From Nemertoderma westbladi (taxonomy: Eukaryota > Animalia > Xenacoelomorpha), in contig JAUCBJ010007809.1 in assembly GCA_032718475.1 (NCBI GenBank), forward strand, positions 22,115 through 86,114: a stretch of DNA of 64,000 bases, given 5' to 3'. The position numbers and the translations under genes are program-made. The notes beneath the pieces are model-generated. The model saw only the letters and a list, made by a program, of their open reading frames with translations. It made no database searches and was not told the origin of the DNA. Every line of letters starts with the position of its first letter. The first letter of the stretch is position 1. This document shows, in pieces, positions 18,822-47,054 of the stretch.

Positions 18822-19371
18822 TGTTAGCGTATTCAATTCCGTTAACCAGGCCCACACAAAGTTGGTTTTTAGGCAATATTGGGAGCACGAGGTTGGTTAC
18901 CAATCAACCTCGTGCCACCCAATAAGCGGGGGCAATAGGCCCCAAAGGAGACACACACAAAGGGGGTCAGAGGTTATACCTCCAGGGGAGAGAGTGACAG
19001 TAGCGGGGGGAGAAGAGAGTAAAGGGCGACAACAGGGTTATTAGCCAATGGGGGGAAGGCATCGCCTGGGTAGTGCAATACGGCAATATATTACCAGCTA
19101 CCATGTTATCATTCAGTAGTTATCTCATTCTGTTAGTCGGTTAGTTAGGGCAGAGCCGTGACTCTAATACCGTCCACTGCTGCCATCATTCACTTATATT
19201 TTATATCTCATTCAATACTGCAATAACTGTGTTTGTGCTTATCCTATTATATTTATACTGCTACAGCGTCAACAATATTAGAACTCTTAATCTCACACTT
19301 TTCACTCACACGGCGGGGACGAATAATTGGAACAACCGGATAAACCGGGATCCTCCGTGGATTCCGTCACA
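18822..19371 (+). repeat. 3' LTR of Bel/Pao family C, copy 1
   Basis: TGTTAGC...GTCACA after the poly-G PPT; inverted near-identical copy at 39094-39654. Confidence 0.92.
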
Positions 19372-22930: not shown

Positions 22931-23475
22931 TGTGACGGGATCCAGATGGGATCCCGGTTTATCCGGTTTGTCAGTTCACGCGTCCCCGCCGTGTGTGAAG
23001 AGTAAAAGAGTTTCGGATGTTCGACGTGTATAATGTTTGGGTATATGGATGTAGATACGGTATAATGGTGGACAAAGTTATTGCATATGGAAGGTGGGAG
23101 ACGGTAATTGAAATCCCGGTACTTCCCTAACTAAACTATTGTAAGCTACAGTAACACCAGTAACTAGCACTGAGATAACTGAACTGGTATGATTACAGGT
23201 TACTGGTTATATTGCACGGTGGCCTTATTGCTACTCAATCGATGCCTTTCCCCCCTCCTGATTGGTTGATACCCTTGTTGGCGCCTTTGGAGTGATCCCC
23301 TTCACTCCACCTGTTCTCTCTGGGTTAGGGGTTTGGCCCCTGACCCTCATTGTGTGGTTCACCTTCCCATTTTGTTGGGGTGACACGAGTTGGTTATTAC
23401 CCCAATCTCGTGGCCCCCAATATTGCTTATCGGCTTAACTTTTATGGGATGTTAGCGGGATTGAATAAGCTAACA
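22931..23475 (-). repeat. 3' LTR of the full-length Bel/Pao element
   Basis: Direct repeat of 36656-37200 with TG...CA termini. Confidence 0.97.
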
Positions 23476-24157
23476 CTCCCCCCCATGCTATCTTCCCGGT
23501 AAGAAGATAGCATCAACCAAAAAGTGCGCTACAATCCCGCTGGATCCCGATCTAGCATCGGGTGTGGGGTGGAAATCTTTTCTCGGAGCCGGCTTTCCAG
23601 GCCGCTCCCTATGGGTATGATAACGCTACCCTGTATGCCTGGCGTCCCATGTCGGGCCGATCGCGCTCACCTCTCACGCAACTTTTGTTTCCCCAACACT
23701 TTCGCCCTATCTCTTCTCCACTCTCACCCTAACTCTCTCACACCCTCGGACCTTCTCGTCCCTCACTCAGCCTCTTATTCTCCCCCCCCCCACACTAGAA
23801 TTGCGTCCGCACTCTTTCCGCACTTCGCACTATCACTCCGTCCCTCAACCCCACTTTGACTATCTCGTCCCTTCTGACGAATCTCACCCTCCTTCCGTGC
23901 CGTCGCACTCAGGAAATGTGAAATCGTCTTATGTCTCGTCCATAGTCCCATAGTCAGTTGTCCTCCCAGTCCCAGTAGCTAATTGAGAAAGGTTGTATGA
24001 CTATAGTACTTACTCCGATCGTATATATTTTATTGCTAAACTACTGATTACTACGTACGTACATATAATTGCACTTATTTGATTATTTACATTAATTAAA
24101 TTTGTACATAGTTCGCACGTCTCACGTGGCGCCTTCCAGGCGCACTACATCAAAGCC

Positions 24158-25090
24158 TCAGTCCATCCCTCCTTGGCGTCCGTGGTGTCCCCGAAAGTTG
24201 CACTTCGGACATCGGTTCTGCAACCGTGGACACGCTCCCATCCTGTGGCTCGACTCGCGGCAGTAGAGACAACTAGTCCCTTTCTGGAACCGGTACAAAC
24301 AGCTCCTTTCCTGGTGGGTCTGTCTCCCACAGTAGCCGCAACCGAGTACCAATGTCTCCCGCCCCACGTCGTCTTTCATCCCAAGCGATCTCCGCAGTCT
24401 GTGGAGTTGCTGATAGGCGAACTTCTGGACGTTAGCGTCCCTGTCTACGTCGATCTCCTCGCCCCTCCCGGGCATCGTCTCTCCTAATGCTACCCGTGGT
24501 GCCATCCCCGGTTGCTCGCCCAACCTGATAGTGCTCCCCGCGAAATCCATCGCCGGCTCCTCATGCACCCAGGTCCGCTTGCCGGATCTGTTCCAGAAGG
24601 CCCTCGCCCCACTGGCCGTCACCACCCTTCCGCCAACCCTGTCCGTGTCTGAGTGGCCTATCCTCCCGATGGGCGGCATCTCTCCGAACTCGTCGTCGTC
24701 CTCCTCCTCCTCTGGCAGTGGCTTCAACCCCGGTATCCAGGTGGACCCACTATATCCCTTCCCGCCTTGGTTCTTGCCCGTAACTCTCCATACCTCAAGC
24801 TCCCCTAGCCCCCTTTGCGGTTGGTCGCCCTCGGCGCCCGCTGGTATGGGCATCACTTGCAATCCCGACGTCGACTGTTTCGGTGATCCCACCGTCCACC
24901 CTAGTTCTTTCCCTAGAGACTCCCCCGAACTCCCTGACGAAGCCCAACGAAGTTCGTCTAAGGCTGCTTGTTCCTCGAAGCCGTAGCTCTGCGCCCTAGC
25001 TTCCTCCTCCCTCTCCTCTGCTTCTCTCCTCTCTCACAAGTTTGCCTGCCATCTCGAACTCTGCCCGGTCGCTCACCCGTAAGTGGTGCC
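24158..25090 (-). pseudogene. Internally deleted ORF2 of family B (CCHC zinc-knuckle protein)
   Basis: EFEMAGKL start homologous to copy 3; knuckles CGYCGRQTHQERSC, CLYCRESSHRMGAC and CPKCNFRGH. The exonuclease part and C-terminal domain are missing. Confidence 0.75.
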
Positions 25091-25479
25091 TTGCCAAGGC
25101 GCAAACGTGATGAGTGATGGGTTTAGGTGGTTTAAGCTCAGTTCGATGGCCTATCTCTTTCTGAATTTCTGAGTTATTGCCTATTCTTACTACTGTTACC
25201 ATAATTTGTCCCCCTTCTTAGCCCTATTCTTATTCTAATTTTATTTTGATTTTGATTTCAATCCTACTACCTTATTGTTTCCTATTACTTGCTACTGCCT
25301 ATGGATTATTCTATCTCCTAATCCAACATTCTGGCCTACTCTGTGGGCCTGTGCAGTACAGCAGTATATGTCGCGCGGCCTACACGATCTTTCCAACTGT
25401 ACTCCTATGCCCCCCTCTTGCTACTAACTGCTAACTAATATCTATATTCTATATACCCTTCTACCTCTTACTCTTTCTC

Positions 25480-26010
25480 TAACTAACGGTACTACGTACC
25501 TTCTAACTCTAACTCTTCTCTAACTAATGGTACTACGTACCCTCTAACTCTCTACCTAACGGTACTACGTACCCTCTAACTCTCAGCCTAACGGTACTAC
25601 GTACCCTCTAACTCTACCTAACGGTACTACGTACCCTCTAACTCTAACTCTTCTCTAGCTAACGGTACTACGTACCCCCTAACTCTCTACCTGACGGTAC
25701 TACGTACCCTCTAACTCTAACTCTTCTCTAACTAACGGTACTACGTACCCTCTAGCTCTCTAACTAACTAGTGGTACTACGTACCCTCTAACTCTCTAAC
25801 TAACTAGTGGTACTACGTACCCACTAACTCTAACTCTTCTCTAACTAACGGTACTACGTACATTCTAACTCTCTACCTGACGGTACTACGTACCTCCTAA
25901 CTCTAACCTAACGGTACTACGTACCCTCTAACTCTCTAACTAACTAACTGACGGTACTACGTACCTCCTAACTAACTGACTCTAGGTACTACGTACCTCT
26001 TAACTAACTT
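25480..26010. repeat. Minisatellite of ~30-45-bp units with core hairpin GGTACTACGTACC
   Basis: About 15 copies of (TAAC)GGTACTACGTACC(CTCTAACTCT) between pol and ORF2. Confidence 0.9.
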
Positions 26011-26148
26011 CTGCCTACTAACTGCGTACCTACTATGTACTATTTATATAATTTTATTTTATATTTTTTTGTGTGGGAAGGGCGTCTCGCCCTCAATCCC
26101 ACCCCCCTCAGTCCAAAACTTGGACGATTAAACTCTTCTCTAACTCCA

Positions 26149-26560
26149 CTAAGGTGCCCATTCTAGCAGACAGCATTTCCCTACAGCTCTCCTGTAGGTT
26201 TTTCTGTCCTTCGCACCTATCTTACCACCTATCCGCACTTCTACCGATCGGACTCTTCCGTCCTCATCGGAGTAAGTGCCTACAACTCTCGCCAACCGCC
26301 ACTGGTTGTTGATGATAGTATCATCCGTGACGATTACGAGATCTCCCTCTCTTAACTCCCTGTTCGGTTTCCTCCACTTGCTTCTTTTATGGAGTGTGGG
26401 TAGGTATTCTTCTACCCACCTCCTCCAATACTCTGCGCTTATTGCTTTAGCGACTTTCCAACTCTGGCGGGAGTGTATATCATCTGGGTCTACACCCCGC
26501 ATATCGATGGTCGTTGGCCTTTCCATCAGAAAATGGCTAGGCATCAGCACGCTCCGGGTA
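26149..26560 (-). CDS. Bel/Pao integrase C-terminal region (frameshifted continuation of pol)
   Basis: PSHFL...YWRRWVEEYLPTLHKRSKW...GDLV...WRLARV...DGRVRSV, typical of Bel/Pao C-termini (DUF5641-like). Confidence 0.85.
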
Positions 26561-29500
26561 TAGCGGTCTGCTATTAATGATCCCCTCGCACTTCGCAAGC
26601 ACTGTCCGTAAGACGTCCTCAGTGACCATGTGGGTGTTCATTAGCTTCGTCATTAGACGCTTTGAACTTCCCACCAGTCTCTCGACGCATCCTAGTGTAT
26701 GTGGTGCATACGGCGTCCTTCTCTCCCACTTTACTTGTCGTCTTCTCATGGCCGCCCTGACTTCCTCCCCTTCCAAGATGTCCAAGGCCACGGCCATCTC
26801 ATTCTCTGCGCCCACAAAGTTTGTGCCGTTGTCGCTGTATATCACTGCGATCGTCCCACCTTTGCGGTCTCTAAATCTTTCTAAGGCATTAATGAATGCT
26901 GATGCGGTTGCATCCTGGGCGAGTTCTATCCCTACTGCCCGCGTGTTGTTACATACGAAGATGATGCCGTAGCGTTTCTCCATGTGCCGCATCACCTTAA
27001 TCTTTATCGGCCCGAACATGTCCACACCGCAATGCGTAAATGGCGGGTCGTGCTGTCTTACTCTACTAGCTGGTAGTGGCGCCATCTCTTGTATGGATCG
27101 CTCCTTCTTCGCTCGTCGGCACGTCTGGCACTGCCCCACCACCGCTTTTACCTTCTTCCTCAACTGTTTGACCCAAAAGGTCCTCCTTATCTCCGTGAGA
27201 GTTCTGTTGGTACCCCCGTGCAATATCGACTTGTGGGAGTACCAGATAATCTGGTGAACTATCGGCGATCCTGTGGGGATGATGATGGGCTTCGGTGGTA
27301 CAATTATGCTGTTGTTGTATCCCACCCTAGAATTCATCACTAGAATCCCGTCGTCATTAAGTTGTGGCGACAGCGCGATCAGCTCGCTGTCCCGTCGAAG
27401 GTGTTGTTGGTTACCGACGCGTTCAACCTCGTCGCCATAGTTCTTCCATTGTTCATAGCGGATGACTGCCTTGGCCGCTCCTTCCAGATCTATGTATGTA
27501 TTGATCTTCTTGTCCTTGCCAACTCCCGCGAGGAAATTCCCGAAGGCTCTCCAATACGCCACTAGTTTCTTGGTCTTGTACCAACTAGAGCTGTAACTGA
27601 GGAGTTTATCCGTCGGGTTATCGCACAGCTCTTGGCGTGGTTGTACATCCCTAATCTCCCTCACCATCTGGGAGTATATCTCTTCTCCCTCTGAATCTCC
27701 TTCTTCTCCCTCTGACACTACTTCTGAGCCCGGATCCACCTTTCTCATCGGCGGCCAGGCCTCCTTATCACTCAGAAATTGTGGCCCATGTTGCCACAAT
27801 TCTTCCTTCTTCAAGAAAGTGTGGCGTACCACGCCCCTCGACAACAAGTCCGCTGGGTTCTCGTCTGTTGGGCAATAGTGCCACCTTTCCAGTTCTGTGG
27901 TCGCCCTTATTTCGTCCACTCTATTTGCGACGAATATCGGGTATCTCGTCCTTTCGTTTTGTAGCCAACCAAGCACTACCATGGAATCCGTCCAGTAGTG
28001 TGTCTCCACTATGTTGGGAATAGTATCCACTAGGTAGGCTGTGGCTCTAACTCCTAATCTCGCAGCTGTCAATTCTAACTTGGGAACTGATGCTGAATCT
28101 GGTGGTGTCGACTTTGCTTTGCTAAAGGCTAGTCTGGGCTTTTGAGCCCCCTCTCGTTGTACTAAATAGAGTGCCGCTCCGTACGCCTCCAACGACGCAT
28201 CGGAGAACATGTGTAGGTCCAGATTCGTCATATTCCCATCCGGGAAATACACTCGTGGCATGTTGTATGTTCCCATCTTCTCCAAGTCTCCTGTCCACTT
28301 ACTCCACTGTTTCTTGATTTCCTCTGGTACCTCTACGTCCCACTCATCCTTCAATTTGTATACTCTCTTGAGTATCTGTTTCCCCGTGACTAATAATGGG
28401 GATGCTAGGCCTAGGGGATCGTATATCCTTGCTATATACGATACATAGCCCCTCTTCGTGTGGATGTCTGCGCCCTCCTGGCTCAGCTGATACTTCAGTT
28501 CGTCTGTCTCTCTGTTCCACACGATTCCCAATGCCTTCTGTTGAGATTCTGTTCTCTTGTTCGCCATGTCCTGCCCTTTGGCTGTTGTGGGATTATCCAT
28601 GGTCGATTCTGGCCTCTTGTCCTCTATCGCCTTGATAAATTCTTCCGAACTGGATTGGAATTTGGTCAGGTTAAAGCCGGATCCTTTTAGGATGTCGCGA
28701 ACCTCGCGCCCCGTGTCCAGTATCTCCTTAACCGTATTTCCAGACTCCATTCCATCGTCTACGTAGAAGCCGCGTCGAATCATATCGACGGCCCTACTGC
28801 TGTATCTATCTTCCTTCCCCTTCACTGTGTCTCTCACTGCCATAGTCGTCGTAAATGAAGACGACTTGGCCCCCATGTTTTGTACTACCATCTTATATGC
28901 TGGTATTATCGACGGTTCTTCCTCGCCGTTATACCATAAGAAGCGTTGACTGTCGCTATCTTCCTCCGTTACACGGACTTGGTTGAACATGCCTTCTATG
29001 TCACACGTGAAGGCGTGTTTCCCGTTTCTAAATCTAAGTAGGACCTCTATGCCCGAGTTGTATATGTTTGGGCCTTCTAACAGATAGTCGTTTAAGCATT
29101 TTCCGTTGGTCTTTGCCGATGCGTCAACTACCATCCGCAGTTTACCTTTCTTTGGGTCTAAAGCCACGTGGAGTGGCAGGTAATATGTCCTGTCCGTGTT
29201 CGGTTCGTCGACCGGTAACTCCACGGCCCATCCTTTCTCGACGTACTTCTTAATCGTTCTGTGGATGTACTCATTCTTCTCGGGGCTCCGTTTTAGTGTT
29301 TGTTTCAGCTTGCGGAGTCTCGTGAGTACCATCCCTCTATTATCGGGCAGCGGTATCTTCGGTAGTTTCCATACCATTCCTATAGTATACCGCCCCTCAT
29401 CGCATGTCATCGTTTCCTCCACGCTTTGTAAAGCCTGCTTGTCTTCTACCGAGGTCCCGACCCCGGTCTCTTTCAGTCCCTCGAAATCTTGTCTGAGCAG

Positions 29501-31996
29501 TCTTTTAAGCTGCTCCTCTGCTCCCTCATCACCCATTTCCTGCATTGTTCCCGCGAACATGCATCCTGATGTCTCCGACATCCTAAATGGTATCTTGCTC
29601 TTGATTGGACCACTCAGCGTCCACCCGAATGGTGTTAATATGGCCACCGGGTCACTCTGCTTGTCTTCGCCGAAGACCGTTTGCATTCTTTCGTGGGCCG
29701 TTGGGCAGTCCATTCCTACTATGATGGATACCTTCCTAACGTCCACGTCTGGGATTGAGAAGTCAATGTCGTCCAGGAATTTATATTGCTCGACCTCGAT
29801 GTTGGTTGGCCGCCTGGCATTGATATTAATTGACTCTATCACTTGGATGGGGTCGATGGTTGCCCCATAGTCGCATCCCGGTGCCACTGCTGCAATTGCG
29901 CACCGTCCGGTTCTCATCTCCAGGATCTCATCTTTGCTAGAGATGGTTGTTACCGCCATTCTGCTCGGCCTCGTTCTCAATCCTATCTCTTCGGCCACCC
30001 ATTCCTCGACTAGTGTGAAGGCAGCTCCACTGTCAACCAGCATTAGTGTTGTTACTGATCGATTGCCTTCCCCAATCACTCGCACGGGTACTACTCCAAG
30101 TAGCACCGTTCCGCTCTTCTTCGCCCCTGCTGTGCTCGTTGCCATCATTTGGCCTCTCCTCTGACCGAACTTTACCGGCTTCTCCTTGCATTCCCTAGCT
30201 CTATGTCCACTCATCACACACCGTGAACAGATTTTATTGCTCGACGCATAATCTATCTGATCTTGCCTAGGTAGCGCCTGCCAGTACCTGCAGTTCATGG
30301 TTTGATGAAGCGCATTTGCGTGTAGCTGGCATTTGCTCTTTGGGTCGTAGCCCTCCTTATACAGCGCATTGCGTATCGCAGCTGCGTTTGTACCAAAGTC
30401 CCTACTATTCTTATTGTTTGGATTCGGCCTACTGGACGTACTGGGGTTATATTTATTCGTGTTGTTATTGTTCCCCTGTCCGTTCCATGGTGTGGTCTTA
30501 TCTTCGGCTAGCTGTGGACTCGTAGTCCCCTGCGTCGCTGCATATGGCAATGATTGCCTGAGCCTCGGTAATGCGTTTGATGTATTGTGGTCTGGTTTCG
30601 GTCTATGGTAATCTGTTTTCGGTCCCTTTCCCAGGCTATCTTCGCTATAGACTGGGTCAGTTATTAGTTCAGCCTCGTAGTTTAAGAAGTTTGACATTTC
30701 TTCTAAACCTGGTTCCGCACCCTTCTTATCTCGAGTGGAGAAGGCGATTTTCCTCCACTTGTTGCGCAGCCAGTTTGGTAGTGCCTGCGCTATCGTTGTG
30801 ATGTTGTTGGACGCGTTGAGCTCGTATGGCGCGTCTAGCGTCTTCAGCACGATTAGCGCCTTTTCAACTTTGTTAGCAAATGTCTTAATGCTAACGGGAT
30901 TATCCTGTAGGCCACCCGATGTTATGCCTCTTAGTGTCTGTCTGATGATCTTGGCCGGGTGCCCGTATTCCCTATCCAGTGCCCGCCATGCTGTCGTGAA
31001 GCCGCCCTCTATTCCTTGATATTGCCTCACGATATCGTATGCTGGGCCTCCCGTGTATACTTGCAGATACTTTAGGCACTCCGCCTGCGTCAAGTTCTTT
31101 GTTAGTATCTCGTTACTATACATGCGCCGAAACTGTAAATATTCTTCCGGCCTACTCCCATCGAATTTGAATGGTTCCACGGGTGGTAACTCGATCCTCG
31201 TTTTCAACGCATCGATCAACGTGGCCATCCCCATCGCCTGCGCTTCCAATGGATTCGATGGGTGCTGCATAGTTTCTCCTGTCTGGTGCGGTTCGTCCGT
31301 CCTATTTCTTGACTTTCTTTGACTTGGGTATGTCATCGGGGGTAGCGGCCCCCTCCATATTTCTGTGTCACACGACCTATTTTCATCCAAGGGTCTCGTT
31401 GTTCTTGCTCCTATCGGGGTATATTGTTGATATTGTGATGGGGGAATGTCACCCTGCCCCCCCCCCCCCACCGGTATGTTTGGTACTGGGGTTGATGTTA
31501 ATATGTTGGGGCCCATACACCTATCCGCAATAATTCCCCCCTCCCCTGGGTATATGTTATGTCCCTGCATGCTGTAGTCATACTGCTGTACTGGTACCGG
31601 TATAGGCCTATCAGCTTCTGGCCTACTCGCCGGTATGTATTCCGCGACTTCCGGGTTTAATCCCGTCGTCCGCGCTATCCTATCGCCTACATTGCCTCTC
31701 TCAGTATGGCCTATGGTATGTGCAGTAAGGCCTACAGTATGTCCTACAGTCTGCATGTGTCGCTCGGGATCGAAGTTTATTCTTCTCGAATAATCCTCCC
31801 CGCGGCTACCGTATTCTCGATCGGTAGGTATATTCCGTCGGAAAGTTTCTCTTCGACCCCCCTCTCTACTGTCCTCATCTTCGTACCGGTACATCGCGTA
31901 CCCCTCTCTCGGCGCGTAGTGCGCCCCGCCAGGTCGCATCTCTCCGGGGCGACGGCAATCTCCCGGAGTTCGACCCCACTCACTCTCTGTTCTCAT
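26537..31996 (-). CDS. Bel/Pao Gag-Pol polyprotein (Gag, Zn knuckles, aspartic protease, RT, RNase H, integrase)
   Basis: FDGS..EY..F gag; CSRCVMSGHRAREC; LVDSGA; YLPLH..RMVVDAS..DIEGMF.Q..YVDD; FSDAS..ELTAA..WTDS; HHCC followed by VDMFGP/SDNGTNF/VERL. Confidence 0.97.
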   Translation of the reverse strand: MRTESEWGRTPGDCRRPGEMRPGGAHYAPREGYAMYRYEDEDSREGGRRETFRRNIPTDREYGSRGEDYSRRINFDPERHMQTVGHTVGLTAHTIGHTERGNVGDRIARTTGLNPEVAEYIPASRPEADRPIPVPVQQYDYSMQGHNIYPGEGGIIADRCMGPNILTSTPVPNIPVGGGGQGDIPPSQYQQYTPIGARTTRPLDENRSCDTEIWRGPLPPMTYPSQRKSRNRTDEPHQTGETMQHPSNPLEAQAMGMATLIDALKTRIELPPVEPFKFDGSRPEEYLQFRRMYSNEILTKNLTQAECLKYLQVYTGGPAYDIVRQYQGIEGGFTTAWRALDREYGHPAKIIRQTLRGITSGGLQDNPVSIKTFANKVEKALIVLKTLDAPYELNASNNITTIAQALPNWLRNKWRKIAFSTRDKKGAEPGLEEMSNFLNYEAELITDPVYSEDSLGKGPKTDYHRPKPDHNTSNALPRLRQSLPYAATQGTTSPQLAEDKTTPWNGQGNNNNTNKYNPSTSSRPNPNNKNSRDFGTNAAAIRNALYKEGYDPKSKCQLHANALHQTMNCRYWQALPRQDQIDYASSNKICSRCVMSGHRARECKEKPVKFGQRRGQMMATSTAGAKKSGTVLLGVVPVRVIGEGNRSVTTLMLVDSGAAFTLVEEWVAEEIGLRTRPSRMAVTTISSKDEILEMRTGRCAIAAVAPGCDYGATIDPIQVIESININARRPTNIEVEQYKFLDDIDFSIPDVDVRKVSIIVGMDCPTAHERMQTVFGEDKQSDPVAILTPFGWTLSGPIKSKIPFRMSETSGCMFAGTMQEMGDEGAEEQLKRLLRQDFEGLKETGVGTSVEDKQALQSVEETMTCDEGRYTIGMVWKLPKIPLPDNRGMVLTRLRKLKQTLKRSPEKNEYIHRTIKKYVEKGWAVELPVDEPNTDRTYYLPLHVALDPKKGKLRMVVDASAKTNGKCLNDYLLEGPNIYNSGIEVLLRFRNGKHAFTCDIEGMFNQVRVTEEDSDSQRFLWYNGEEEPSIIPAYKMVVQNMGAKSSSFTTTMAVRDTVKGKEDRYSSRAVDMIRRGFYVDDGMESGNTVKEILDTGREVRDILKGSGFNLTKFQSSSEEFIKAIEDKRPESTMDNPTTAKGQDMANKRTESQQKALGIVWNRETDELKYQLSQEGADIHTKRGYVSYIARIYDPLGLASPLLVTGKQILKRVYKLKDEWDVEVPEEIKKQWSKWTGDLEKMGTYNMPRVYFPDGNMTNLDLHMFSDASLEAYGAALYLVQREGAQKPRLAFSKAKSTPPDSASVPKLELTAARLGVRATAYLVDTIPNIVETHYWTDSMVVLGWLQNERTRYPIFVANRVDEIRATTELERWHYCPTDENPADLLSRGVVRHTFLKKEELWQHGPQFLSDKEAWPPMRKVDPGSEVVSEGEEGDSEGEEIYSQMVREIRDVQPRQELCDNPTDKLLSYSSSWYKTKKLVAYWRAFGNFLAGVGKDKKINTYIDLEGAAKAVIRYEQWKNYGDEVERVGNQQHLRRDSELIALSPQLNDDGILVMNSRVGYNNSIIVPPKPIIIPTGSPIVHQIIWYSHKSILHGGTNRTLTEIRRTFWVKQLRKKVKAVVGQCQTCRRAKKERSIQEMAPLPASRVRQHDPPFTHCGVDMFGPIKIKVMRHMEKRYGIIFVCNNTRAVGIELAQDATASAFINALERFRDRKGGTIAVIYSDNGTNFVGAENEMAVALDILEGEEVRAAMRRRQVKWERRTPYAPHTLGCVERLVGSSKRLMTKLMNTHMVTEDVLRTVLAKCEGIINSRPLYPERADA

Positions 31997-32509
31997 CTCG
32001 ACTACCGACGGCTCGCTATCCGTCCTCGCTCTTCTATCGTTCGCGGCGATACTTCTACTACTGTCTTCTCTTCTTCTCCTTTCAGTGGAGTGTTCCCGCT
32101 CGTGAGATCTCTCGTCGACCTCCCGGTTAAATCCCGACTGTTCTTCTTCCCTCTTCTGATCGGGCTCGACGCTTCGTCCGCCCTCTCACGACGTCAACCT
32201 GTCTCTCTCTGCTCGGTCGCACGTCGCTGGGGATACTCGCAATCCCCCTACTACTCTCCGTCGCCGGGTGTTGCGGTTTACCTATTTCGGCCCGCGCATT
32301 ATCCGCTGACGGCTGTGGGACACTCTCTGCCCCCCCCCCCCCTTTCGCCGCTAACTCGCTGTTGTGGGGCCCCTGTAGCCCCCCCCCCCCCCCCCACTCG
32401 CCACATCTAACTTCGCTATCTCTCACCCCGCTACTATATCCCTCTCTAGTCGACACATCAGCCCTACCGCGGTCGGGTCTATTCACCCCCGCCTCTCCCT
32501 CTGCTATTG

Positions 32510-32772
32510 CGTGGCCCACCAGGCCCCCGCTGGGTCTATCCAACCCAGCCACTCCCTGCCTACCAACTACGTGGCCTACCAGGCCCTCGCTGGGTCTATC
32601 CAACCCAGCCACTCCCTGCCTACCAACTACGTGGCCTACCAGGCCCTCGCTGGGTCTATCCAACCCAGCCACTCCCTGCCTACCAACTACGTGGCCTACC
32701 AGGCCCTCGCTGGGTCTATCCAACCCAGCCACTCCCTGCCTACCAACTACGTGGCCTACCAGGCCCTCGCTG
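32510..32772. repeat. 60-bp coding tandem repeat (PSEGLVGHVVGRQGVAGLDR)n; diverged units continue at 34359-34500
   Basis: Identical 60-bp sequence lines at 32581-32760. Confidence 0.95.
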
Positions 32773-34358
32773 GGTAATGGTGAAAAATATCGAGACTTGC
32801 AAAATATCGAGAGTAAAAATAACGAGAGTAAAAATATCGAGAGTAAAAATAACGAGTGTTGAAAATTAACGTGATTAAAAAATATCAAGAGTAAAAATAA
32901 CGCGAGATGAAAAATATCGAAAATAACGAGTGTTGAAAAATATCGAGTGTTGAAAAATATCGAGAGTAAAAATATCGAGTGTTGAAAAATATCGAGAGTA
33001 AAAATATCTAGTGTTGAAAAATATCGAGTGTAAAAATATCGAGTGTTGAAAAATATCGAGAGTAAAAATATCGAGTGTTGAAAAATATCGAGTGTTGAAA
33101 AATATCGAGTGTAAAAATATCAAGTGTTGAAAAATATCGAGAGTAAAAAATATCGAGTGTTAAAAAATATCGAGAGTAAAAATATCGAGTGTTGAAAAAT
33201 ATCGAGAGTAAAAATATCGAGTGTTGAAAAATATCGAGTGTTGAAAAATATCGAGAGTAAAAATATCGAGAGTAAAAATATCGAGTGTTGAAAAATATCG
33301 AGAGTAAAAATATCGAGAGTAAAAATATCGAGTGTTGAAAAATATCGAGAGTAAAAATAACGAGTGTTGAAAATATCGAGTGTTGAAAAATATCGAGAGT
33401 AAAAATATCGAGTGTTGACAAATATCAAGTGTTGAAAAATATCGAGAGTAAAATGTATTGCATTTTGCTTGAGCATTTTATTTAGAATTATGGAACAATA
33501 TTGCAGTGCATGGGTTACAACAGTGCAAGTGAATGGCATTATGTATTACACCTTGGGTACCCATTTACCAGATTTATTATACTAGCTAGTTTTTGCTATT
33601 TTTTGAATAAATATTATAAAAGAAGTGCTAGCTATAAATTTTGATAAATATTATAAATATTGTTAAATATTATATTAGAACACGTACTGTATAAGCTACC
33701 AAATGTTGATAAATATTGTTGTTCTAGAACATTTTTAGTAAAAAAAATTATCATACAACCCTTATTTAAAAAAATTGTTACTATCAATATTTTTACTCTC
33801 GATATTTTTCAACATTCTATATTTTTCAACACTCGATATTTTTACTCTCGATATTTTTCAACACTCGATATTTTTCAATACTCAATATTTTTCAACACTC
33901 GATATTTTTACTCTCGATATTTTTCAACACTCGATATTTTTACTCTCGATATTTTTCAACACTCGATATTTTTACTCTCGATATTTTTCAACACTCGATA
34001 TTTTTACTCTCGATATTTTTCAACACTCGACATTTTTACTCTCGATATTTTTCAACACTCGATATTTTTACTCTCGATATTTTTCAACACTCGATATTTT
34101 TACTCTCGATATTTTTCAACACTCGATATTTTTACTCTCGATATTTTTCAACACTCGATATTTTTACTCTCGATATTTTTACTCTCGATATTTTTCAACA
34201 CTCGGTATTTTTACTCTCGATATTTTTACCCTCGATATTTTTACTCTCGATATTTTTTGAACTCTCGATATTATCGTTATTTTTCAACACTCGATGTTTT
34301 TACTCGCGTTATTTTTACTCTCGATATTTTTCATGTCTCGATATTTTTCAATATAACC
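32773..34358. mobile_element. Foldback-type non-autonomous TIR element with tandem-repeat arms (Merlin-like ends)
   Basis: Arms of 14-15-bp units (AAAAATATCGAGTGTTG / AAAAATATCGAGAGT) in inverted orientation around an AT-rich spacer. GGTAA...TAACC ends with 8-bp TSD CCTCGCTG; 6- and 10-bp registers also fit. Confidence 0.8.
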
Positions 34359-36655
34359 CCTCGCTGGGTCTATTCAACCCAGCGGATCCCTGCCTACCAA
34401 CTACGTGGCCTACCAGGCCCTCTCTGGGTTGGCTCAACCCTGCCGCTTCCGGCCTACCAATTATACGGCCTACCAGACCCCCATCTGCCTGGCCATACAC
34501 GCCCGACGTGTTTACGTTAATAGCACCCATATAGGAAACGGAATTAATTTGTTCGTTCGAAATAAAATCATTTGGATTATGTTGCGCGACTACACTATCT
34601 GAATTATTTTGTAAATTCGGGCTTGGATCATTATTTAAATTATTTGCATTATTTTGTAAATTCGGGCTTGGATCATTATTTAAATTATTTGAATTATTTT
34701 GTAAATTCGGGCTTGGATCATTATTTAAATTATTTGAATTATTATTATTCTCTAAATCTAAATTACCACTCGGATTATTTTGCACGTTGAAATTGAAATT
34801 ATTATCTGTATTTAAATTTAAATTACTGCTACTAGGTAAAGTATTTCCTGCAATAAAGATTTGATTAGAATTATCCCATACGGTACTATTAATATTAACA
34901 ACGTCTACTGTAACATTATCATTATTACCCCCCCCCCCCCCCCCCCCCCCCGCCCGTACGGTCACACCAGTTTTGGGTCTGTCGTGCGGTCCCTGTAAGT
35001 GGGGTATTAATAAATGTATCCACGGCCCCTGGCTCCTCTAAAATACTCGAGCCAGTCCCGCTTTCAGACGCCCCCGCCTGCACCAGTTGCAGCTCGCGCG
35101 CGCGCCTAATCCTATGCCCCGCAAGCTCATTTTGGCATCTCTTTAATTCCTTTCGCTCACACTCCTCCTTGGCCATTCTCTCCCTACACTCCCGTTCGCT
35201 CTGTTCGGCCAACTCTGCCACTCTCCTAGCTTCTTCCCGTCGTCTTGCCCCACGCTCCTTGAGTTCCTTTTCCTCTATCGCCTCATGCTCCTTACGTTCC
35301 GCCTCCTCTCTCGCCTCACGCTCCTTGCATTCTGCCTCCCTTCTCGCCTCACGCTCCTTGCGTTCCTTTTCCTCTCTCGCCTCATGCTCCTTACGTTCCG
35401 CCTCCTCTCTCGCCTCACGCTCCTTGCGTTCTGCCTCCCTTCTCGCCTCACGCTCCTTGCGTTCCGCCACACGCTCCTCTTGTTCCTTTCTCTCTATTTC
35501 CTCATACTCCCTAAGGCTTCTCAAAGCCCTTTCGGCCCTCTCTCCGGTTTCTCTAATCAATACCGTTTCCCTCTCTAGCCGCATTCTCCCCTCCTCTAAC
35601 TGTTTATCCATTTCCCTCTGACCATGCTCTATCAGGTCGAGACGGTACGTGGCACCTATCTCTCTCACCAGTCTTTCTTTCGCGGAGGATGTAACAGACT
35701 TATCGGTTGTGACGGATTCCCTCTGCCTTCCCGTCCTACTAACTTTCCCCCTCCTCCCGGAACTCCCTCCGGCCGACGAGACCGAATCCGCGGGGTCAAC
35801 CTCGGATTTGCCCTCCTCAGGTCTGTTCCAACCCACTGATTTTATACCCCGGGCATCGATTAAGTATGGCCCTATGTACACTACACTAGGTTGTATACCC
35901 CCTTGCCGCCATGAGTCATACAGTTCCTCGGCAACCCTTGTCGCTCTCTCCTCGGCCAATTCTCTCTGCCCGAAGCGCATTAGATAATATAAATGTCTGT
36001 CCGACTTACCTAGTCCTGACTTTAGTTTTACCTCGTCTATAGCCTTCCCCTTTCTGGCCTCCTCTAGTAGTCTCCGGGTCGCGTTGTAGGCCCGTCGACG
36101 TCGATCGGAGACCCCGATGTCCTCGTCGCCGACCTCTCCTCCGTCTCTCCGGGTTCGACGTCGTACCGGCGGCCCCACCGTCGCCGTTCCGGTGGGCCGT
36201 CCGTCGCCCTCGGCCTGTGGTTGGCCCGCGACATCGGTATCGACATCTCCGTCGTCTCTCCGGGTCCGGTGTCGTACCGTCGGCCCCACCGTCGCCGTCT
36301 CGGTGGGCCGTTAGTCTCTCTCGGCCCGTGGCTGGCCCGCGACATCAGTACCTCGACCCACATCCCGTGTTGACTCGTCTTCTTCTCCCTCCATCTCGCT
36401 CTCTCCTCCTCTCGACTCGATCTCGGGTTCCAGGCGGCCCCCCTCATCCTGAGCTGCCGGATGACCCGTTACTGATGGGTCCGGCTTTGTGGGCCTGTAC
36501 CGCCTGGTTGCGGCCTCGCGGATCGTTAATTCTTCTTCGTCCGGGGTCCGCGTCGGCGTTATCTCTCCCGACTGACTCATCTCGGCTTTTGTAGATTGGT
36601 GGCTGGTAGTCACTGAGTTTTAGATAGCTAGGGCGGCAGCTCTGAGTTCAATTAC

Positions 36656-37200
36656 TGTGACGGGATCCAGATGGGATCCCGGTTTATCCGGTTTGTCAGT
36701 TCACGCGTCCCCGCTGTGTGTGAAGAGTAAAAGAGTTTCGGATGTTCGACGTGTATAATGTTTGGGTATATGGATGTAGATACGGTATAATGGTGGACAA
36801 AGTTATTGCATATGGAAGGCGGGAGACGGTAATTGAAATCCCGGTACTTCCCTAACTGAACTATTGTAAGCTACAGTAACACCAGTAACTAGCACTGAGA
36901 TAACTGAACTGGTATGATTACAGGTTACTGGTTATATTGCACGGTGGCCTTATTGCTACTCAATCGATGCCTTTCCCCCCTCCTGATTGGTTGATACCCT
37001 TGTTGGCGCCTTTGGAGTGATCCCCTTCACTCCACCTGTTCTCTCTGGGTTAGGGGTTTGGCCCCTGACCCTCATTGTGTGGTTCACCTTCCCATTTTGT
37101 TGGGGTGACACGAGTTGGTTATTACCCCAATCTCGTGGCCCCCAATATTGCTTATCGGCTTAACTTTTATGGGATGTTAGCGGGATTGAATAAGCTAACA
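36656..37200 (-). repeat. 5' LTR of the full-length Bel/Pao element
   Basis: Direct repeat of 22931-23475. On the - strand a TATA-like AATATAA lies ~30 nt before an initiator-like TCAGT. Confidence 0.97.
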
Positions 37201-39093: not shown

Positions 39094-40321
39094 AGTGACG
39101 GAATCCACGGAGGATCCCGGTTTATCCGGTTGTTCCAATTATTCGTCCCCGCCGTGTGAGTGAAAAGTGTGAGATTAAGAGTTCTAATATTGTTGACGCT
39201 GTAGCAGTATAAATATAATAGGATAAGCACAAACACAGTTATTGCAGTATTGAATGAGATATAAAATATAAGTGAATGATGGCAGCAGTGGACGGTATTA
39301 GAGTCACCGCTCTGCCCTAACTAACCGACTAACAGAATGAGATGACTACTGAATGATAACATGGTAGCTGGTAATATATTGCACGGGTTGGCCGTATTGC
39401 ACTACCCAGCCGATGCCTTCCCCCCATTGGCTAATAACCCTGTTGTCGCCCTTTACTCTCTTCTCCCCCCGCTACTGTCACTCTCTCCCCTGGAGGTATA
39501 ACCTCTGACCCCCTTTGTGTGTGTCTCCTTTGGGGCCTATTGCCCCCGCTTATTGGGTGGCACGAGGTTGATTGGTAACCAACCTCGTGCTCCCAATATT
39601 GCCTAAAAAAAAAACTTTGTGTGGGCCTGGTTAACGGAATTGAATACGCTAACACCCCCCCCCCCCCCTAGTGCGCTACAATTCCGTTGGATCCCGATCT
39701 AACATCGGGTGTGGGGTGGAATTATTTTTCCGGAGCTGGCTTTCCAGGCCGCCCCCTATGGGTATGATATCGCTACCCTGTTTACCTGGCGTACCGTGTC
39801 GGGCCGATCGCGCGCTTCTCTCACACGACTTTTGTTTCCCCAACACTTTCGCCACTCCAACTCCACTCTGTTCTCACCCTGACTCTCCTCTACTTCTTCT
39901 TACTTCCGCTCTAACTTTCGGACTTCCCTGTCCCTCACTCAGCCTCTTATTCCTCCCCCCCCCCCACACTTGAATTGCACCCGCACTCTCCTTACGCTGT
40001 TACTCAACCCCTATCTCAGCCACTCACTCCTGACGAGCTTCACCCTCCTTCCGTGCCGTCGCACTCAAGAAGTGTGATGTCGTCCAGTGTCTCGTCCGTG
40101 ATAGTATTATAGTCTATTGGTCCCCAGTCCCAGTAGCTAATTGGAAAAAGGTTATACAACTATAGTACTTACTTCGATTGTATTTACTTGCTAAACTAAT
40201 AATGATTGCTACGTACTTACATACTAATTGCACTTTTCAATTATTTAGATTACTTGAATTTGTACTTAGGAGTTCGCACGTTTTGCGTGGTGCCTTCCAG
40301 GCATGTCACATCTCTAGTTCT

Positions 40322-42162
40322 CTAGTTTGTTCCGCTCGCCTTTGGGAACCACCTTAACTCTTTCCCTCTATCGTCTTCCTCCATTGGTCGTTTCCTGGCT
40401 GCTGCCGCTCCTTTGGTCTTGTCTGCTTTCAGGCTCCTGACCTTCGCCATCACCTCTTTACTAATCCCGGTCGTCGACTCCTTGGGAGCTGGTGTTATCA
40501 GTTCCCGGTATCGCTTCGTGGGTGGCCCCTCCGAGAGGCCCTGTTGTCTCCCCCTGGTGGTGTCCCATAGGATCATTTTCATCGCCCGCGGCACATGCTC
40601 CGCCAAGAAATCTCTGAACTCCCCTCGGTTCTGTGACGTCCACCTGTCCAAATACCTCTGCGTATTTATCACCCCGGCATACGACGCCGCCGTTGCTACC
40701 TCCTGATAGGTAAATGGAAGTCTTCGCTTAATAATCTCCAGGTGGGCCTCCTGATTAATATTGAAACCCCACCGGAACTCCTGGGCCTTCCTACGTTGCC
40801 GTGTCGTGGCACCGACGTCGGTCCACTCCTCGAAGATCCTAAACTTCTCTTCTTCGTCCATCCAGTCGCACTAGCGTCCGTAGTGCCCCCGAAAGTTACA
40901 CTTCAAACATCGGTTATGCAACCGTGGACACGCCCCCATCCTGTGACTTGACTCGTGGCAGTAGAGACAACTAGTTCCTTTCTGGAACCGGTACAAACAG
41001 CTCCTTTCCTGGTGGGTTTGCCTCCCACAGTAATCGCAGCCGAGCACCCATGTCTCCCGCCCCAAGCGATCTCCGCGGTCTGTGGAGTCGCTGACGAGCG
41101 AATTTCTGGATGTTAGTGTCCCTGCCCACGTCGATCTCCTTGCCCCTCACGGGCATCGTCTCCCCGAATACTACCCGTGGTGCCATCCCCGGTTGTTCAC
41201 CCAATCTGATGGTGCTCCCCACAAAATCCATCGCCGGCTCCTAATGCACCCAGGCCCGCTTGCCGGGTCTATCCCAGAAGGCTCTCACCCCACTGGCCGT
41301 CACCACCCTCCCGCCAACCAAGTCTGTGTCCAAGTGGCCCAACCTCCCGATGGGCGGCATCTCTCCGAACTCGTCGTCATCCTCGTCCTCCTCCGGAAGT
41401 GGCTCCAACCCCGGTATCTTAGTGGATCCACTGTGTCCCTTCCCACCTTGGCTTCCTCGCCTTCCCACAGCTCCGCAATGGCCTGTGTTCTCGACTAGTC
41501 CCAAACCGTCTGGTGCTGTCATAGCCATGACGACCGTCTGCATGTCTAGGAGGTTGGGGTGTCCAGACCGATGATTCTCTCCGCGTCATTGCGAATTGCC
41601 GATCCCACTTTCGTCGTCGACTTCTCTCTCACTAGGACTTGCACCGCCCTCGGCAGCCGGTTTAACTTCGGCCCGTCCTTCTTCCCATACGTTCCCAGGT
41701 CAAATAGGAAAATATCCCCATTTGGCGCAGCTAAGTGTAGGAGTATGGTTCTGGCCGATCCCGCCGACCCTCCTCGTCTTCTACGGTCCCTTCGTCGTCT
41801 AGGATCATGTATCCTCCCTTGTTGACGGACTCTATGAACCTCTTCCAATCTTTCCTCGGCGACTCTCTCGCGTACTTCGGAATCCCGAACTTCGCCTTGT
41901 CTCCTTTCACCACGTAGTGGAAATGCTCGAAGATCACGTTGTCCAGCGACGGCGTCCCGTAGGTCCCGACCAGCCGCTGTTCGTGCACCTCCCTAAAGTG
42001 GTCCTGTAGCGCTCGTGCTGCGTGACCCTTTTCTAACCACTCGTAGTATCCCCTTGTCCTCTCTTCCGGATGCCTCTTGGTGAAATCCACCAGTATCTCC
42101 TTTCCTCCTGACTCCGCCTTTCTCTTTCTGATCAGCTTCCCTGCCATTTCGAACTCTCTCAC
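40322..42162 (-). pseudogene. Bel/Pao ORF2: DEDD 3'-5' exonuclease-like domain, 3 CCHC knuckles and a C-terminal domain (frameshifted)
   Basis: YMILDDEG / LLHLAAPNGDIFLFDL / KVGSAIRNDAERI / NLLDMQ across three frames; CX2CX4HX4C three times. Confidence 0.7.
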
Positions 42163-42278: not shown

Positions 42279-44734
42279 CTAAGGTGCCCCCTCTAGAAGA
42301 CAGCACTTCCCTACAGCCCTCCTGTAGGTCTTCCTGTCTTTCGCACCTATCTTGCCACCTATCTGCACTTCTACCAATCGGAATCTTCCATCCTCATCGG
42401 GGTAAGTGCCTACAACTCTCGCCAACCGCCACTGGTTGTTGATGATAGTATCATCCATGACGATCACGAGATCACCCTCTGTCTCTCTCTGTTCGTGCTC
42501 CTCCACTTATTTCGTCTGTGGAGCGTCTAGTGACTCCGGGTCATCATTCTCTGGATATAGCGGTCTGCTATTAATCATACCCTCACACTTTGCAAGTACT
42601 GTCCTTAGTATGTCCTCCGTAACCATGTGGGTGTTCATCAACTTTGTTATTAGGTGCTTGGAACTACCCAGTAGTCTCTCAACGCACTCTAGGGTATGCG
42701 TGGCATACGGCGTCCTCCTCTGCCACTTTACTTGTCGTCGTCTCATGGCTGCCCTGACTTCCTCCCCTTCCAGGATATCCAAGGCCTCTGCCATCTCGTT
42801 CTCCGCCCCCACAAAGTTGTTGACGCTGTCAGAATATATTACCGCCACCGTCCCACCTTTGCGTTCTCTAAACCTTTCTAGAGCATTAATGAATGCTGAT
42901 GTGGTTGCATCTTGGGCAAGTTCTATCCCTACCGCCCGCGTGTTATTACATACGAAGATTATACCGTAGCGTTTCTCCGTGTACTGCATCACCTTAATCG
43001 TTATCGGCCCGAACATGTCCACACCGCAATGCGTAAATGGCGGGTCGTGCTGTCTTACTCCACTCTAGTGGTGCCATCTCCTGTATGCTCTCTCCTTCTT
43101 CGCTCGTCGGCAGGTCTGGCACTGCCCCACTACCGCCTTTACCTTCTTCCTCAACTGTTTGACCCAAAAGGTCCTCCGTATCTCCATGAGGGTTCGGTTG
43201 GTGCCCCCGTGCAATATCGACTTGTGGGAGTCCCAGATATTCTGGTGGACTATTGGCGATCCTGAGGGGATGATGATGGGCTTCAGTGGTACGACGATAC
43301 TGTTGATGTATCCCACCGTGGAGTTCATTACTAGAATCCCGTCATCATTAAGTTGTGGTGACAGCGTGATCAGCTCGCTGTCCCATCGGAGATGCTGTTG
43401 TTTACCGACGCGTTCCACCTCGTCCCCGTAGTTCTTCCTTTGCTCATAGCGGATGATTGCTTTGGCCGCCCCTTCTAGATCGATTGTTGTTTTAACTTTT
43501 ACGTCCCTGTCGACTCCCATGAGGAAATCCCAGAAGGCTCTCCAGTATGCCACTAATTTATTGGTCTTGTACCAACTAGAACTGTAGCTAAAGAGTTTAT
43601 CCGTTGGGTTATCGCACAGTTCTCCTGGTTTTGGTTGCACGTCCCTTATCTCCCTCACCATCTGGGAGTATATCTCTTCTCCCTCTGAACCTTCCTCTTC
43701 TCCCTCTAATGCTGCTTCTCCTGAGCCCAGGTCCACCTTTCTCATCGGCGGCCAGGCCTCCTTATCGTTCAGAAACTGAGGTCCGTGTTGCCACAGTACT
43801 TCCTTCTTCAAGAAAGTGTGGCGTGCCACGCCCCTCAATAACAAGTCCGCTGGGTTCTCGTCTGTTGGGCAGTAGTGCCACCTTTCTAGTTCTGTAGTCG
43901 CCCTTATTTCGTCCACCCTATTTGTGACGAATATAGGGTATCTCGTCCTCTCGTTATGTAGCCAACCAAGCATTACCATGGAGTCCGCCCAGTAGTGTGT
44001 TTCCACTATGTTAGGAATAGTGTCCATTATGTAGGCTGTGGCCCTAACTCCTAGCCTCGCAGCTGTTAACTCGAGTTTCGGAACCGATGCTGAATCTGGT
44101 GGCGTCGACTTCGCCTTGCTGAAGGCGAGTCTGGGGTTGTGGGCCCCCTCTTGTTGTACTAAATAGAGTGCCGCTCCGTATGCCTCTAGTGACGCATCGG
44201 AGAACATGTGCAGATCCAGATTTGTCATGTCCCCATCCGGGAAATACACTCGTGGCATGTTGTATGTTCCCATTTGCTCCAAACTTTCTGTCCACTTGCA
44301 CCACTGTTTCTTGCTGTTTCTTGATCTCCTCTGGTACCTCTATGCCCCACTCGTCCTTTAGTTTGTATACTCTCTTGAGTATCTGCTTCCCCGTGACTAA
44401 TAATGGGGATGCTAGGCCTAAGGGATCGTATATCCTCGCTATGTACGACACATAGCCCCTTTTTGTGTGGATGTCTGCGCCCTCCTGGCTTAACTGGTAC
44501 TTTAGCTTGTCCATCTCTCTATTCCACACGATCCCTAGTGCCTTCTGTTGGGACTCTAAACGTTTGGTCGCCATGTCCTGCCCCTTAGCTATCGTGGGGT
44601 TATCCATGGTCGATCCTGGTCTCTCATCTTTTATCGCCTTGATAAATTCCTTCGAACTGGATTGCAATTTGGTTAGGTTAAAGCCGGATCCTTTAAGGAT
44701 GTTGCAAACCTCGCGCCCTGTGTCCAGTAGCTAC
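42279..44734 (-). pseudogene. Bel/Pao pol pseudogene (RT end, RNase H, integrase)
   Basis: ORFs 44044-44667, 43065-44282, 42507-43022 and 42279-42506 are homologous to the intact polyprotein. Confidence 0.92.
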
Positions 44735-47054
44735 TGATAACTGCTATAAATTAAGTGTTACCTGTTCGTTTGACTTTCATTTAAGATTCTCTATCACGTG
44801 GAGTGGGTTAGAAGTTATAAATATTAAAATCGATATGGTTATAGTAAAGAATCAGAGGATATTTTGATAAATTATTGCAGAAAAATACCAAGGATTTTGA
44901 CATGGCTTTAATACTTCATTATGTTCATGAAATAGCTGAGATATTTGATATCTGTTCTTTTGACGTTCATTTAAGATTCTCTATCTCGTGGAGTTGGATA
45001 GAAGTTATATATATGAAAATCGATATGGTTTTTGAAAAAAATCAGAGGATATTTTGACAAATTATTGCAGAAAAACACCAATGATTTTGACATGGCTTTA
45101 ATACTTCATTATGTTCATGAAATAGCTGAGATATTTGAGGTGAATTATTGCATTACATAATAACTTTAACTCCAGCCACTTTAGCAATACGATGAATCAA
45201 TAATAAATATTCTAGAACACAGCAATATTAATAGGGAGATAGGCTACTTATCTCTCCACGCATACAACCACAGATAGGGGGTGTTCTGACACAATCAAAA
45301 TTCATTCATCTTCAGCGGAAAGACGTAGCAAATAACAGCTGATTACTTCTATAAATGTAAGTGTTACCTGTTCTTTTGACTTTCATTTTAGATTCTCTAT
45401 CTCGTGGAGTGGGTTAGAAGATATAAATAAGAAAATCGATATGGTTTTTAAAAAAAATATGAGGATATTTTGATAAATTATTACAGAAAAACACCAAGTA
45501 TTTTGACATGGCTTTGATACTTCATTATGTTCATGAAATAGCTGTGATATTTGAGGTGAATTATTGCATTACATAATAACTTTAGCTCCAGCCACTTTAG
45601 CAATACGATGAAACTATAATAAATATTCTAGAACACAACAATATTAACAGGGAGATAGGCTACTTATCTCTCCACTTAGACAGCCACAGAAAAGCGGTGT
45701 TCTGACACAATCAAAATTCATCCATCTCCAGCGGAAAGACGTAGCATATAACAGCTGATTACTGCTATAAATGTAAGTGTTACCTGTTCTTGTGACTTTC
45801 ATTTAAGATTCTCTATCTCTTGGAGTGGGTTAGAAGTTATAAATATGAAAATCGATATGGTTTTTGAAAAAAATCAGAGGATATTTTGATAAATTATTGC
45901 AGAAAAACACCAATGATTTTGACATGGCTTTAATACTTCATTATGTTCATGAAATAGCTGAGATATTTGAGGTAAATTATTGCATTACATAATAACTTTA
46001 GCTCCAGCCACTTTAGCAATACGATGAAACAATAATAAATATTCTAGAACACAACAATATTAACACGGAAATAGGATACTTATCTCTCCACTTAGACAGC
46101 CACAGAAAAGCGGTGTTCTGACACAATCAAAATTCATCCATCTCCAGCGGAAAGACGTAGCATATAACAGCTTATTACTGCTATAAATGTAAGTGTTACC
46201 TGTTCTTGTGACTTTCATTTAAGATTCTCTATCTCTTGGAGTGGGTTAGAAGTTATAAATATGAAAATCGATATGGTTATAGTAAAGAATCAGAGGATAT
46301 TTTGATAAATTATTGCAGAAAAACACCAGTGATTTTGACATGGCTTTAATACTTCATTATATTCATGAAATAGCTGAGATATTTGAGATGAATTATTGCA
46401 TTACATAATAACTTTAGCTCCAGCCACTTTAGCAATACGATGAATCAATAATAAATATTCTAGAACACAGCAATATTAATAGGGAGATAGGCTACGTATC
46501 TCTCCACGCATACAACCACAGATAGGGGGTGTTCTGACACAATCAAAATTCATTCATCTTCAGCGGAAAGACGTAGCAAATAACAGCTGATTACTTCTAT
46601 AAATGTAAGTGTTACCTGTTCTTTTGACTTTAATTTAAGATTCTCTATCTCGTGGAGTGGGTTAGAAGATATAAATGAGAAAATCAATATGATTTTTAAA
46701 AAAAATATGAGGATATTTTGATAAATTATTACAGAAAAACACCAAGTATTTTGACATGGCTTTAATACTTCATTATGTTCATGAAATAGCTGTGATATTT
46801 GAGGTGAATTATTGCATTACATAATAACTTTAGCTCCAGCCACTTTAGAAATACGATGAAACTATAATAAATGTTCTAGAACACAACAATATTAACAGGG
46901 AGATAGGCTACTTATCTCTCCACTCATAAAACCACAGATAGGGGGTGTTCAAATGCAATCAAAATTCATCCATCTCCAGTGGAAAGACGTAGCAAATAAC
47001 AGCTGATTACTGCTATAAATGTAAGTGTTACCTGTTCTTTTGACGTTCATTTAA

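Follow-up and report, generated by a model that had tools for sequence, protein, structure and literature searches.

A DEDDy-like exonuclease domain predicted in the env position of Bel/Pao retrotransposons of Nemertoderma westbladi

A stretch of 64,000 nucleotides from the genome of Nemertoderma westbladi (contig JAUCBJ010007809.1; the window) contains a broken reading frame, ORF2, downstream of the pol gene of a retrotransposon, and it raises the question what such an element might do with an exonuclease of its own. An earlier note on this DNA had described ORF2 as a captured RNA-binding nuclease in the env position, with a DEDDy-type 3'-5' exonuclease-like domain and three CCHC knuckles, which could counter small-RNA silencing or process element RNA or its primer. 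It has long been asked, and is still open, whether the transposons of animals encode proteins that act against piRNA silencing.

The element and its damaged copies in the window

The window contains three copies (A, B and C) of one family, embedded in a 416-bp satellite. Copy B (22931..37200, minus strand) has LTRs at 22931-23475 and 36656-37200 that are 99.1% identical and a 5-bp target site duplication (TSD). Its gag-pol frame of 1,882 aa encodes DUF1759, an aspartic protease, RVT_1 (weak), Peptidase_A17 (5e-40), Integrase_H2C2, rve and DUF5641 (1e-25). Because copy B combines both LTRs, a 5-bp target duplication and a frame with Pao-type domains, the element is assigned to Bel/Pao; the Gag-Pol order PR-RT-RH-IN, the LTRs of 539-545 bp with TG...CA ends, the polypurine tract and the 5-bp TSDs all agree with this group. 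The ICTV profile (PMC8742986) also describes a tRNA primer-binding site, taken up below, and a length of 4.2-10 kb, which copy B exceeds with 14.3 kb, insert included; both traits are descriptive and not a basis of the assignment.

Copy A, on the minus strand, is 5'-truncated at the satellite. Its ORF2 (40322..42147; ATG at 42147, stop at 40324-40322) lies between the 3' end of pol, with RNase H, integrase and DUF5641 (42400..44735), and the polypurine tract (39655..39669) and 3' LTR (39094..39654), together 39669-39094. This is the env position of a Bel/Pao element, as had been proposed, and all motifs quoted earlier were found at 42147-40322 on the minus strand. Compared with natural copies elsewhere in the genome, aa 1-233 and 473-855 of an 855-aa ORF have been kept and aa 234-472 lost; deletions of 13 nt (around 41767), 1 nt (around 41559) and 17 nt (around 41060) shift the frame, and the spacer between pol and ORF2 is about 950 nt shorter.

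The remnant of the exonuclease domain in copy A (41462..41835, about aa 106-233 of 106-310) includes the ExoI motif YMILDDEG (41788..41811; D117 at 41799-41797, E119 at 41793-41791) and the ExoII motif KVGSAIRNDA (41582..41611; D192 at 41587-41585). ExoIII is missing because of a deletion of about 710 nt (junction 41461..41462), by which the coiled-coil region has gone as well. The suspected loss of ExoIII thus applies to this copy, but intact copies have kept the motif, and it reads YxxxE instead of the expected YAAxD. The three CCHC knuckles follow at 40997..41038, 40928..40969 and 40868..40909, the third interrupted in copy A by an in-frame stop directly ahead of its final Cys. Next comes an unnamed helical C-terminal domain (40560..40846, about aa 681-775; limits approximate).

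The exonuclease region has been partly or wholly lost in all three copies of the window. In copy B, ORF2 (24991-24173, minus strand) retains aa 400-672, the exonuclease region being deleted. In copy C (8964..19370, plus strand) the region is also missing, and the two ORF2 pieces (14283-14820 and 17504-18145) are split by an AT-rich insert of 2.7 kb (14821-17507). A second, foldback-like insert with inverted repeats and short tandem units, about 1.6 kb long (32772-34359), breaks a long N-terminal extension of the gag region of copy B. The 416-bp satellite, which occupies 44735-47055, 50370-59110 and further blocks, shows higher-order periodicity at about 2.2 kb, and the window also contains a Mutator-like transposase frame of 617 aa (48091-49944, minus strand; PF20700, E 1e-46).

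Intact copies, sister families and selection

In the whole genome, a DNA probe gave 661 first-look candidates for this family (family 1), and a protein probe gave 1,488 first-look matches, of which 138 were scored. A frame of at least 840 aa was counted by hand in about 89 of these 138 copies, a proportion that overestimates intactness, because the scored copies are the best matches. A full ORF2 of 843-892 aa is present in 22 of 40 extended family-1 loci; the existence of intact, conserved copies, set beforehand as a test, was thereby confirmed. Further copies carry large in-frame deletions inside ORF2 (L040:164-1141, L009). Among ten LTR pairs of family 1, five are 97.8-100% identical, one is 92% identical, and four were unusable (two without match, one not an LTR, and one, at 84%, with unmatched flanks). 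In a second family, family 2, all ten comparisons gave 97.6-99.9% identity, several of them on incomplete sequence. Judging by LTR identity, both families are young.

Just 5' of the ORF2 start codon a conserved hairpin was observed (L148:2599-2691 and 13 other family-1 copies). It has 17 pairs, two with changes on both sides, and it overlaps AG/GT, a possible splice site. From one sequencing run, whose type is uncertain, came scattered contigs but no splice joint that could be used.

From 3,846 DUF5641 candidates in the genome 150 were scored, and the best 30 loci fell into nine clusters besides family 1. Family 2 has an ORF2 of 858-866 aa at the same position, which is colinear with that of family 1 and 22-24% identical (E 1e-8 to 1e-11), and in both families ORF2 lies inside LTR pairs with TSDs. 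Family 3 (L087:3311-6000, L108-L110) is represented by four copies above 85% identity, which are broken, two of them by a LINE. Its shorter ORF2 has kept a zinc cluster and the C-terminal domain, and the exonuclease domain is absent from the two broken copies examined. In seven of the nine clusters the 3' LTR begins 80-300 nt past DUF5641 and there is no room for ORF2; nevertheless, these families have near-identical LTRs. A tree of the integrase region unites families 2 and 3 as sisters (100/100) and leaves family 1 unplaced. One change is needed in 3% of the bootstrap trees, and ORF2 may or may not have a single origin in these families.

The exonuclease domain is under purifying selection that matches that of the integrase. 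In ten pairs its dN/dS ranges from 0.04 to 0.19, shared variants give 0.08 and 0.10, and the linker is higher (0.17-0.30). In the same two pairs the values for integrase and domain are 0.03 versus 0.05 and 0.04 versus 0.04, far below 1, the bound that had been suggested as a check. With a 401-bp pol probe, 726 candidates were found for family 1 and 250 for family 2, compared to 5, 17, 5 and 13 for four of the seven families without ORF2. There is thus a hint that ORF2 goes with high copy number, based on two families versus four, and abundant families without ORF2 may have been missed, because only the said 150 DUF5641 candidates were scored.

Relationship of ORF2 to DEDDy exonucleases

With a profile of 16 natural WRN-, EXD2-, EXD1- and Mut-7-like proteins, which had been chosen with the hypothesis in mind, the intact family-1 domain scored 18.2 bits, with 1,000 shuffles reaching 2.5 at most, and the family-2 domain 10.1, with shuffles reaching 7.0 at most. 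The same profile recovers EXD2, WRN, Mut-7, Rrp6, Egalitarian and RNase D from the PDB. The significant local alignment spans only aa 133-210, and the placement of ExoI and ExoIII depends on global alignment. A comparison of the domain with the cellular profile by hhalign gave a probability of 92-93% (at most 1.3% in 60 shuffles of family 1), and in the ESM Atlas 24 of 30 neighbours of family 1 and 25 of 30 of family 2 belong to the PF01612 set (scores 0.92-0.94). The core shared with the cellular proteins is LLxLA...LFxL...KVG..I..D...D, in the order ExoI/II/III.

Other searches were negative. The recommended Pfam check failed, as none of 17 members matched PF01612 above the gathering cut-off. 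A PDB sequence search with the domain found no match, and hhalign of the family-1 and family-2 exonuclease regions alone gave 3%, which is not significant. The AlphaFold models had pLDDT values of 36.5 and 31.7, and Foldseek found nothing for them at E<=0.001; a match to the DnaQ fold is missing because both models are unusable. The one part of the family-1 model predicted with confidence is a long helix (aa 362-413) that follows the domain. A DnaQ/RNase H-like fold is favoured by the profile, hhalign and Atlas matches. These also speak for ORF2 as a DEDDy-type protein; Pfam and the form of ExoIII do not. Taken together, the domain very probably derives from DEDDy exonucleases, and it is classified as DEDDy-like, not as a strict member.

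When family 1 was added to the DEDDy alignment, D117, E119, D192, Y289 and E293 fell on ExoI/II/III; family 2, added separately, contributed D101, E103, D225, Y341 and E345. By this alignment to the DEDDy ExoIII both families carry Glu at the position of the final catalytic Asp, and their motif reads YxxxE where the strict form is YxxxD. The five positions are unchanged in 108 of 110 cases in 22 family-1 copies and in 100 of 100 in 20 family-2 copies. The DxE of ExoI, located by alignment, is invariant in 42/42 copies, and a sliding ExoI profile put the proposed site outside the top four in either family. The ExoII Asp lies in the top profile window of both families and is Asp in 41/42 copies. 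The sliding ExoIII profile ranked the site first of 837 windows in family 1 and fourth of 848 in family 2, and MAFFT on the element sequences alone brought the two ExoIII motifs into register in 0/36 settings. Relative to cellular DEDDy proteins there are insertions before ExoIII and, in family 2, also after ExoI. Active-site residues that are kept across deep divergence are more typical of a working metal site. The retention of the acidic residues at 22-24% identity points to such a site, and the Glu makes it uncertain; we consider it fairly likely that the predicted exonuclease is active and that the Glu still binds metal.

The knuckles, located about 300 aa after the exonuclease domain, are well supported: three of the canonical form CX2CX4HX4C are present in 22/22 open family-1 copies examined, as had been noted. 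In family 2, 20/20 copies carry two knuckles, one canonical and one longer, and Cys substitutes for His in the first. The C-terminal helical domain is common to three Bel/Pao families and had no match in any search run. ORF2 is separate from the Gag-Pol polyprotein and has basic stretches at both ends. It does not resemble env, in agreement with the earlier note: a hydropathy scan found no env-like segment in family 1 (best 19-aa value 1.1-1.3), a window of 2.1 in family 2 falls within aligned core strands, and the N-termini are charged.

As to the proposed capture of the domain, none of the host genes compared came close enough to be its donor. The six PF01612 genes of host or contaminant matched ORF2 at E 0.03 or worse, and the host EXD2-, Mut-7- and EXD1-like genes, named partly from sequence features, came no closer to ORF2 than E 0.03. 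The host exonuclease genes (L052-L056) comprise intronless genes, two of them EXD2-like on one contig and two EXD1-like, and a Mut-7-like exon. A bacterial-type DNA polymerase I and tRNA clusters occur on contigs C2853 and C1846 (L051, L209, L211, L224), which belong to the genome of a symbiont or contaminant included in the assembly. Outside this genome, no ORF2 homologue was found among 7,182 and 3,120 candidates; further searches gave two matches, both repeat artefacts, and 241 and 29 pattern matches, none of which was confirmed. This is weak evidence of rarity, since the collections are poor in eukaryote repeats.

Possible functions and known systems

The explanation that we favour, tentatively and at somewhat less than an even chance, is that ORF2 encodes a trans-acting DEDDy-type 3'-5' RNA trimmer that would shorten host small RNAs aimed at the element. 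The reasons are that ORF2 stands apart from Gag-Pol, that its ends are basic and a membrane segment is lacking, and that it is dispensable in relatives and goes with high copy number. The basic stretches could take the protein to the nucleus, the knuckles could hold single-stranded RNA, and the exonuclease, provided that the Glu still serves the metal, as is fairly likely, would chew the 3' end as in trypanosome TbRND. Candidate substrates are piRNA or siRNA guides or the precursors of these; such substrates would account for the large excess of the two families over their relatives without ORF2. Copies with a deleted domain, like the three of the window, may be complemented in trans or be dead. 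That ORF2 counters small-RNA silencing, as proposed earlier, is a possibility that we rate at roughly one in three. The larger claim, that an enzymatic piRNA suppressor encoded by an animal retrotransposon, with a D-E-D-E site and a new domain linked to zinc knuckles, let two families reach hundreds to more than 1,000 copies, appears rather doubtful.

The priming of these elements bears on an alternative, namely that the exonuclease works on nucleic acids of the element itself, either by trimming RNA to the primer duplex or by cleaning cDNA 3' ends before integration. In families 1 and 2 no TGG of a tRNA primer site follows the 5' LTR, and none of 24 tRNA sequences, an incomplete set, has a match of at least 8 nt adjoining the LTR. 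Instead, the first 9-13 nt downstream of the 5' LTR can pair with an internal site of the LTR (36640-36655 with the LTR 36656-37200 in the window), with compensatory changes across four family-1 variants. Shuffles reached this pairing in 3-27 of 500 cases for family-1 variants and in 0/500 for family 2 (loci compared: L187, L189, L191, L192, L197, L200, L237, L249). The concept of self-priming comes from earlier work (PMC4600332, PMC6317226, both in excerpt), and the self-pairing without a tRNA-type site implies that the primer end must come from element RNA. Similar roles have been proposed for ORF3 of bdelloid elements (PMC5408684, in the available text) and for Dada transposases (PMC3706591, likewise). 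However, families A (10 bp; 6/500 shuffles) and H (14 bp; 0/500) self-pair as well. A TGG site of the ordinary kind is present in family B. Since A and H lack ORF2, it is not required for self-priming; an obligate role in primer processing was rejected, and the earlier suggestion that ORF2 processes the primer is weakened. In addition, seven of nine sampled families do without ORF2 and have near-identical LTRs, and ORF2 lies outside the Gag-Pol polyprotein. Action on the element's own ends therefore seems on the unlikely side.

Still less likely is an adaptor of the pseudo-nuclease kind, comparable to Egalitarian or EXD1, which would bind element RNA and link it to transport or protect it while catalysing little or nothing. 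The available text of PMC5408684 cites DEDD derivatives that are inactive and belong to piRNA biology, and the Glu in place of the last catalytic Asp in both families, a domain too diverged for Pfam, the predicted long helix and the apparent restriction of family 3 to the knuckle and C-terminal part would all suit such a protein; against it, five active-site positions have been kept between families that are only 22-24% identical. We regard it as very improbable that the domain is not a DEDDy exonuclease at all, or that ORF2 is a nested insertion or a displaced gag. Arrays of CCHC knuckles typically occur in gag and in ORF1 of LINEs, and there is no Pfam, PDB or confident fold match, but gag lies upstream in the polyprotein, the position and colinear order are the same in two distant families within LTR pairs with TSDs, and in either family the profile and the Atlas give the same answer.

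Several known systems resemble ORF2. Juno and Vesta of bdelloids are elements of the Ty3/gypsy type, judging also by their described features. Together with Athena/Terminon elements they are known to carry a DEDDy ORF3 in the env position (PMC5408684, PMC6431247; cited as known in PMC6338049; all in excerpt). According to the available text of PMC5408684, ORF3 is, like ORF2, a separate post-pol ORF with an RNase D-like DEDDy domain, intact-looking residues, no transmembrane segment and a tentative link to higher copy number; the bdelloid elements are low-copy, and their motif, compared by its published description, is DEED versus D-E-D-E here. ORF2 differs by its length of about 850 aa, its CCHC knuckles and unnamed C-terminal domain, its Bel/Pao host, its hundreds of copies and its clear purifying selection. 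As to Bel/Pao itself, env is the sole extra gene mentioned in the ICTV profile (PMC8742986) and in the main survey (PMC3118150), in the main text of which the word exonuclease is absent. No exonuclease ORF of Bel/Pao was found in the literature searched, and subscription journals, Repbase or supplements may hold one.

In TbRND, as in ORF2, a DEDDy exonuclease is followed by a CCHC array, and the CCHC fingers hold RNA while the DEDD domain trims guide RNAs (PMC7797062, in excerpt; PDB 7c4c). It differs in being a cellular mitochondrial enzyme with a canonical DEDD site and a linker of 28 aa instead of about 300 aa. The structure 7c4c also had the highest Foldseek probability (0.47), but with E 0.59 and on a poor model, and TbRND may serve as a model of how ORF2 could work, with no kinship implied. 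Dada DNA transposases are also mobile elements with a DEDDy exonuclease, but their domain is inserted in a DDE transposase and is not a separate retroelement ORF (PMC3706591, in excerpt). Compared to WRN-exo, EXD2, Mut-7/EXD3, EXD1 and Egalitarian (PF01612), ORF2 is below the Pfam threshold and has Glu for the ExoIII Asp.

ORF2 is a gene that is intact in many young copies, constrained like integrase and present in two distant families with the highest copy numbers measured. Its single exonuclease domain can be expressed and assayed, which makes the anti-piRNA question directly testable. What is new in comparison with the known systems is the Bel/Pao host, the predicted D-E-D-E site as a variant active site, the fusion with knuckles and an unnamed domain, the constraint at the level of integrase and the very high copy number.
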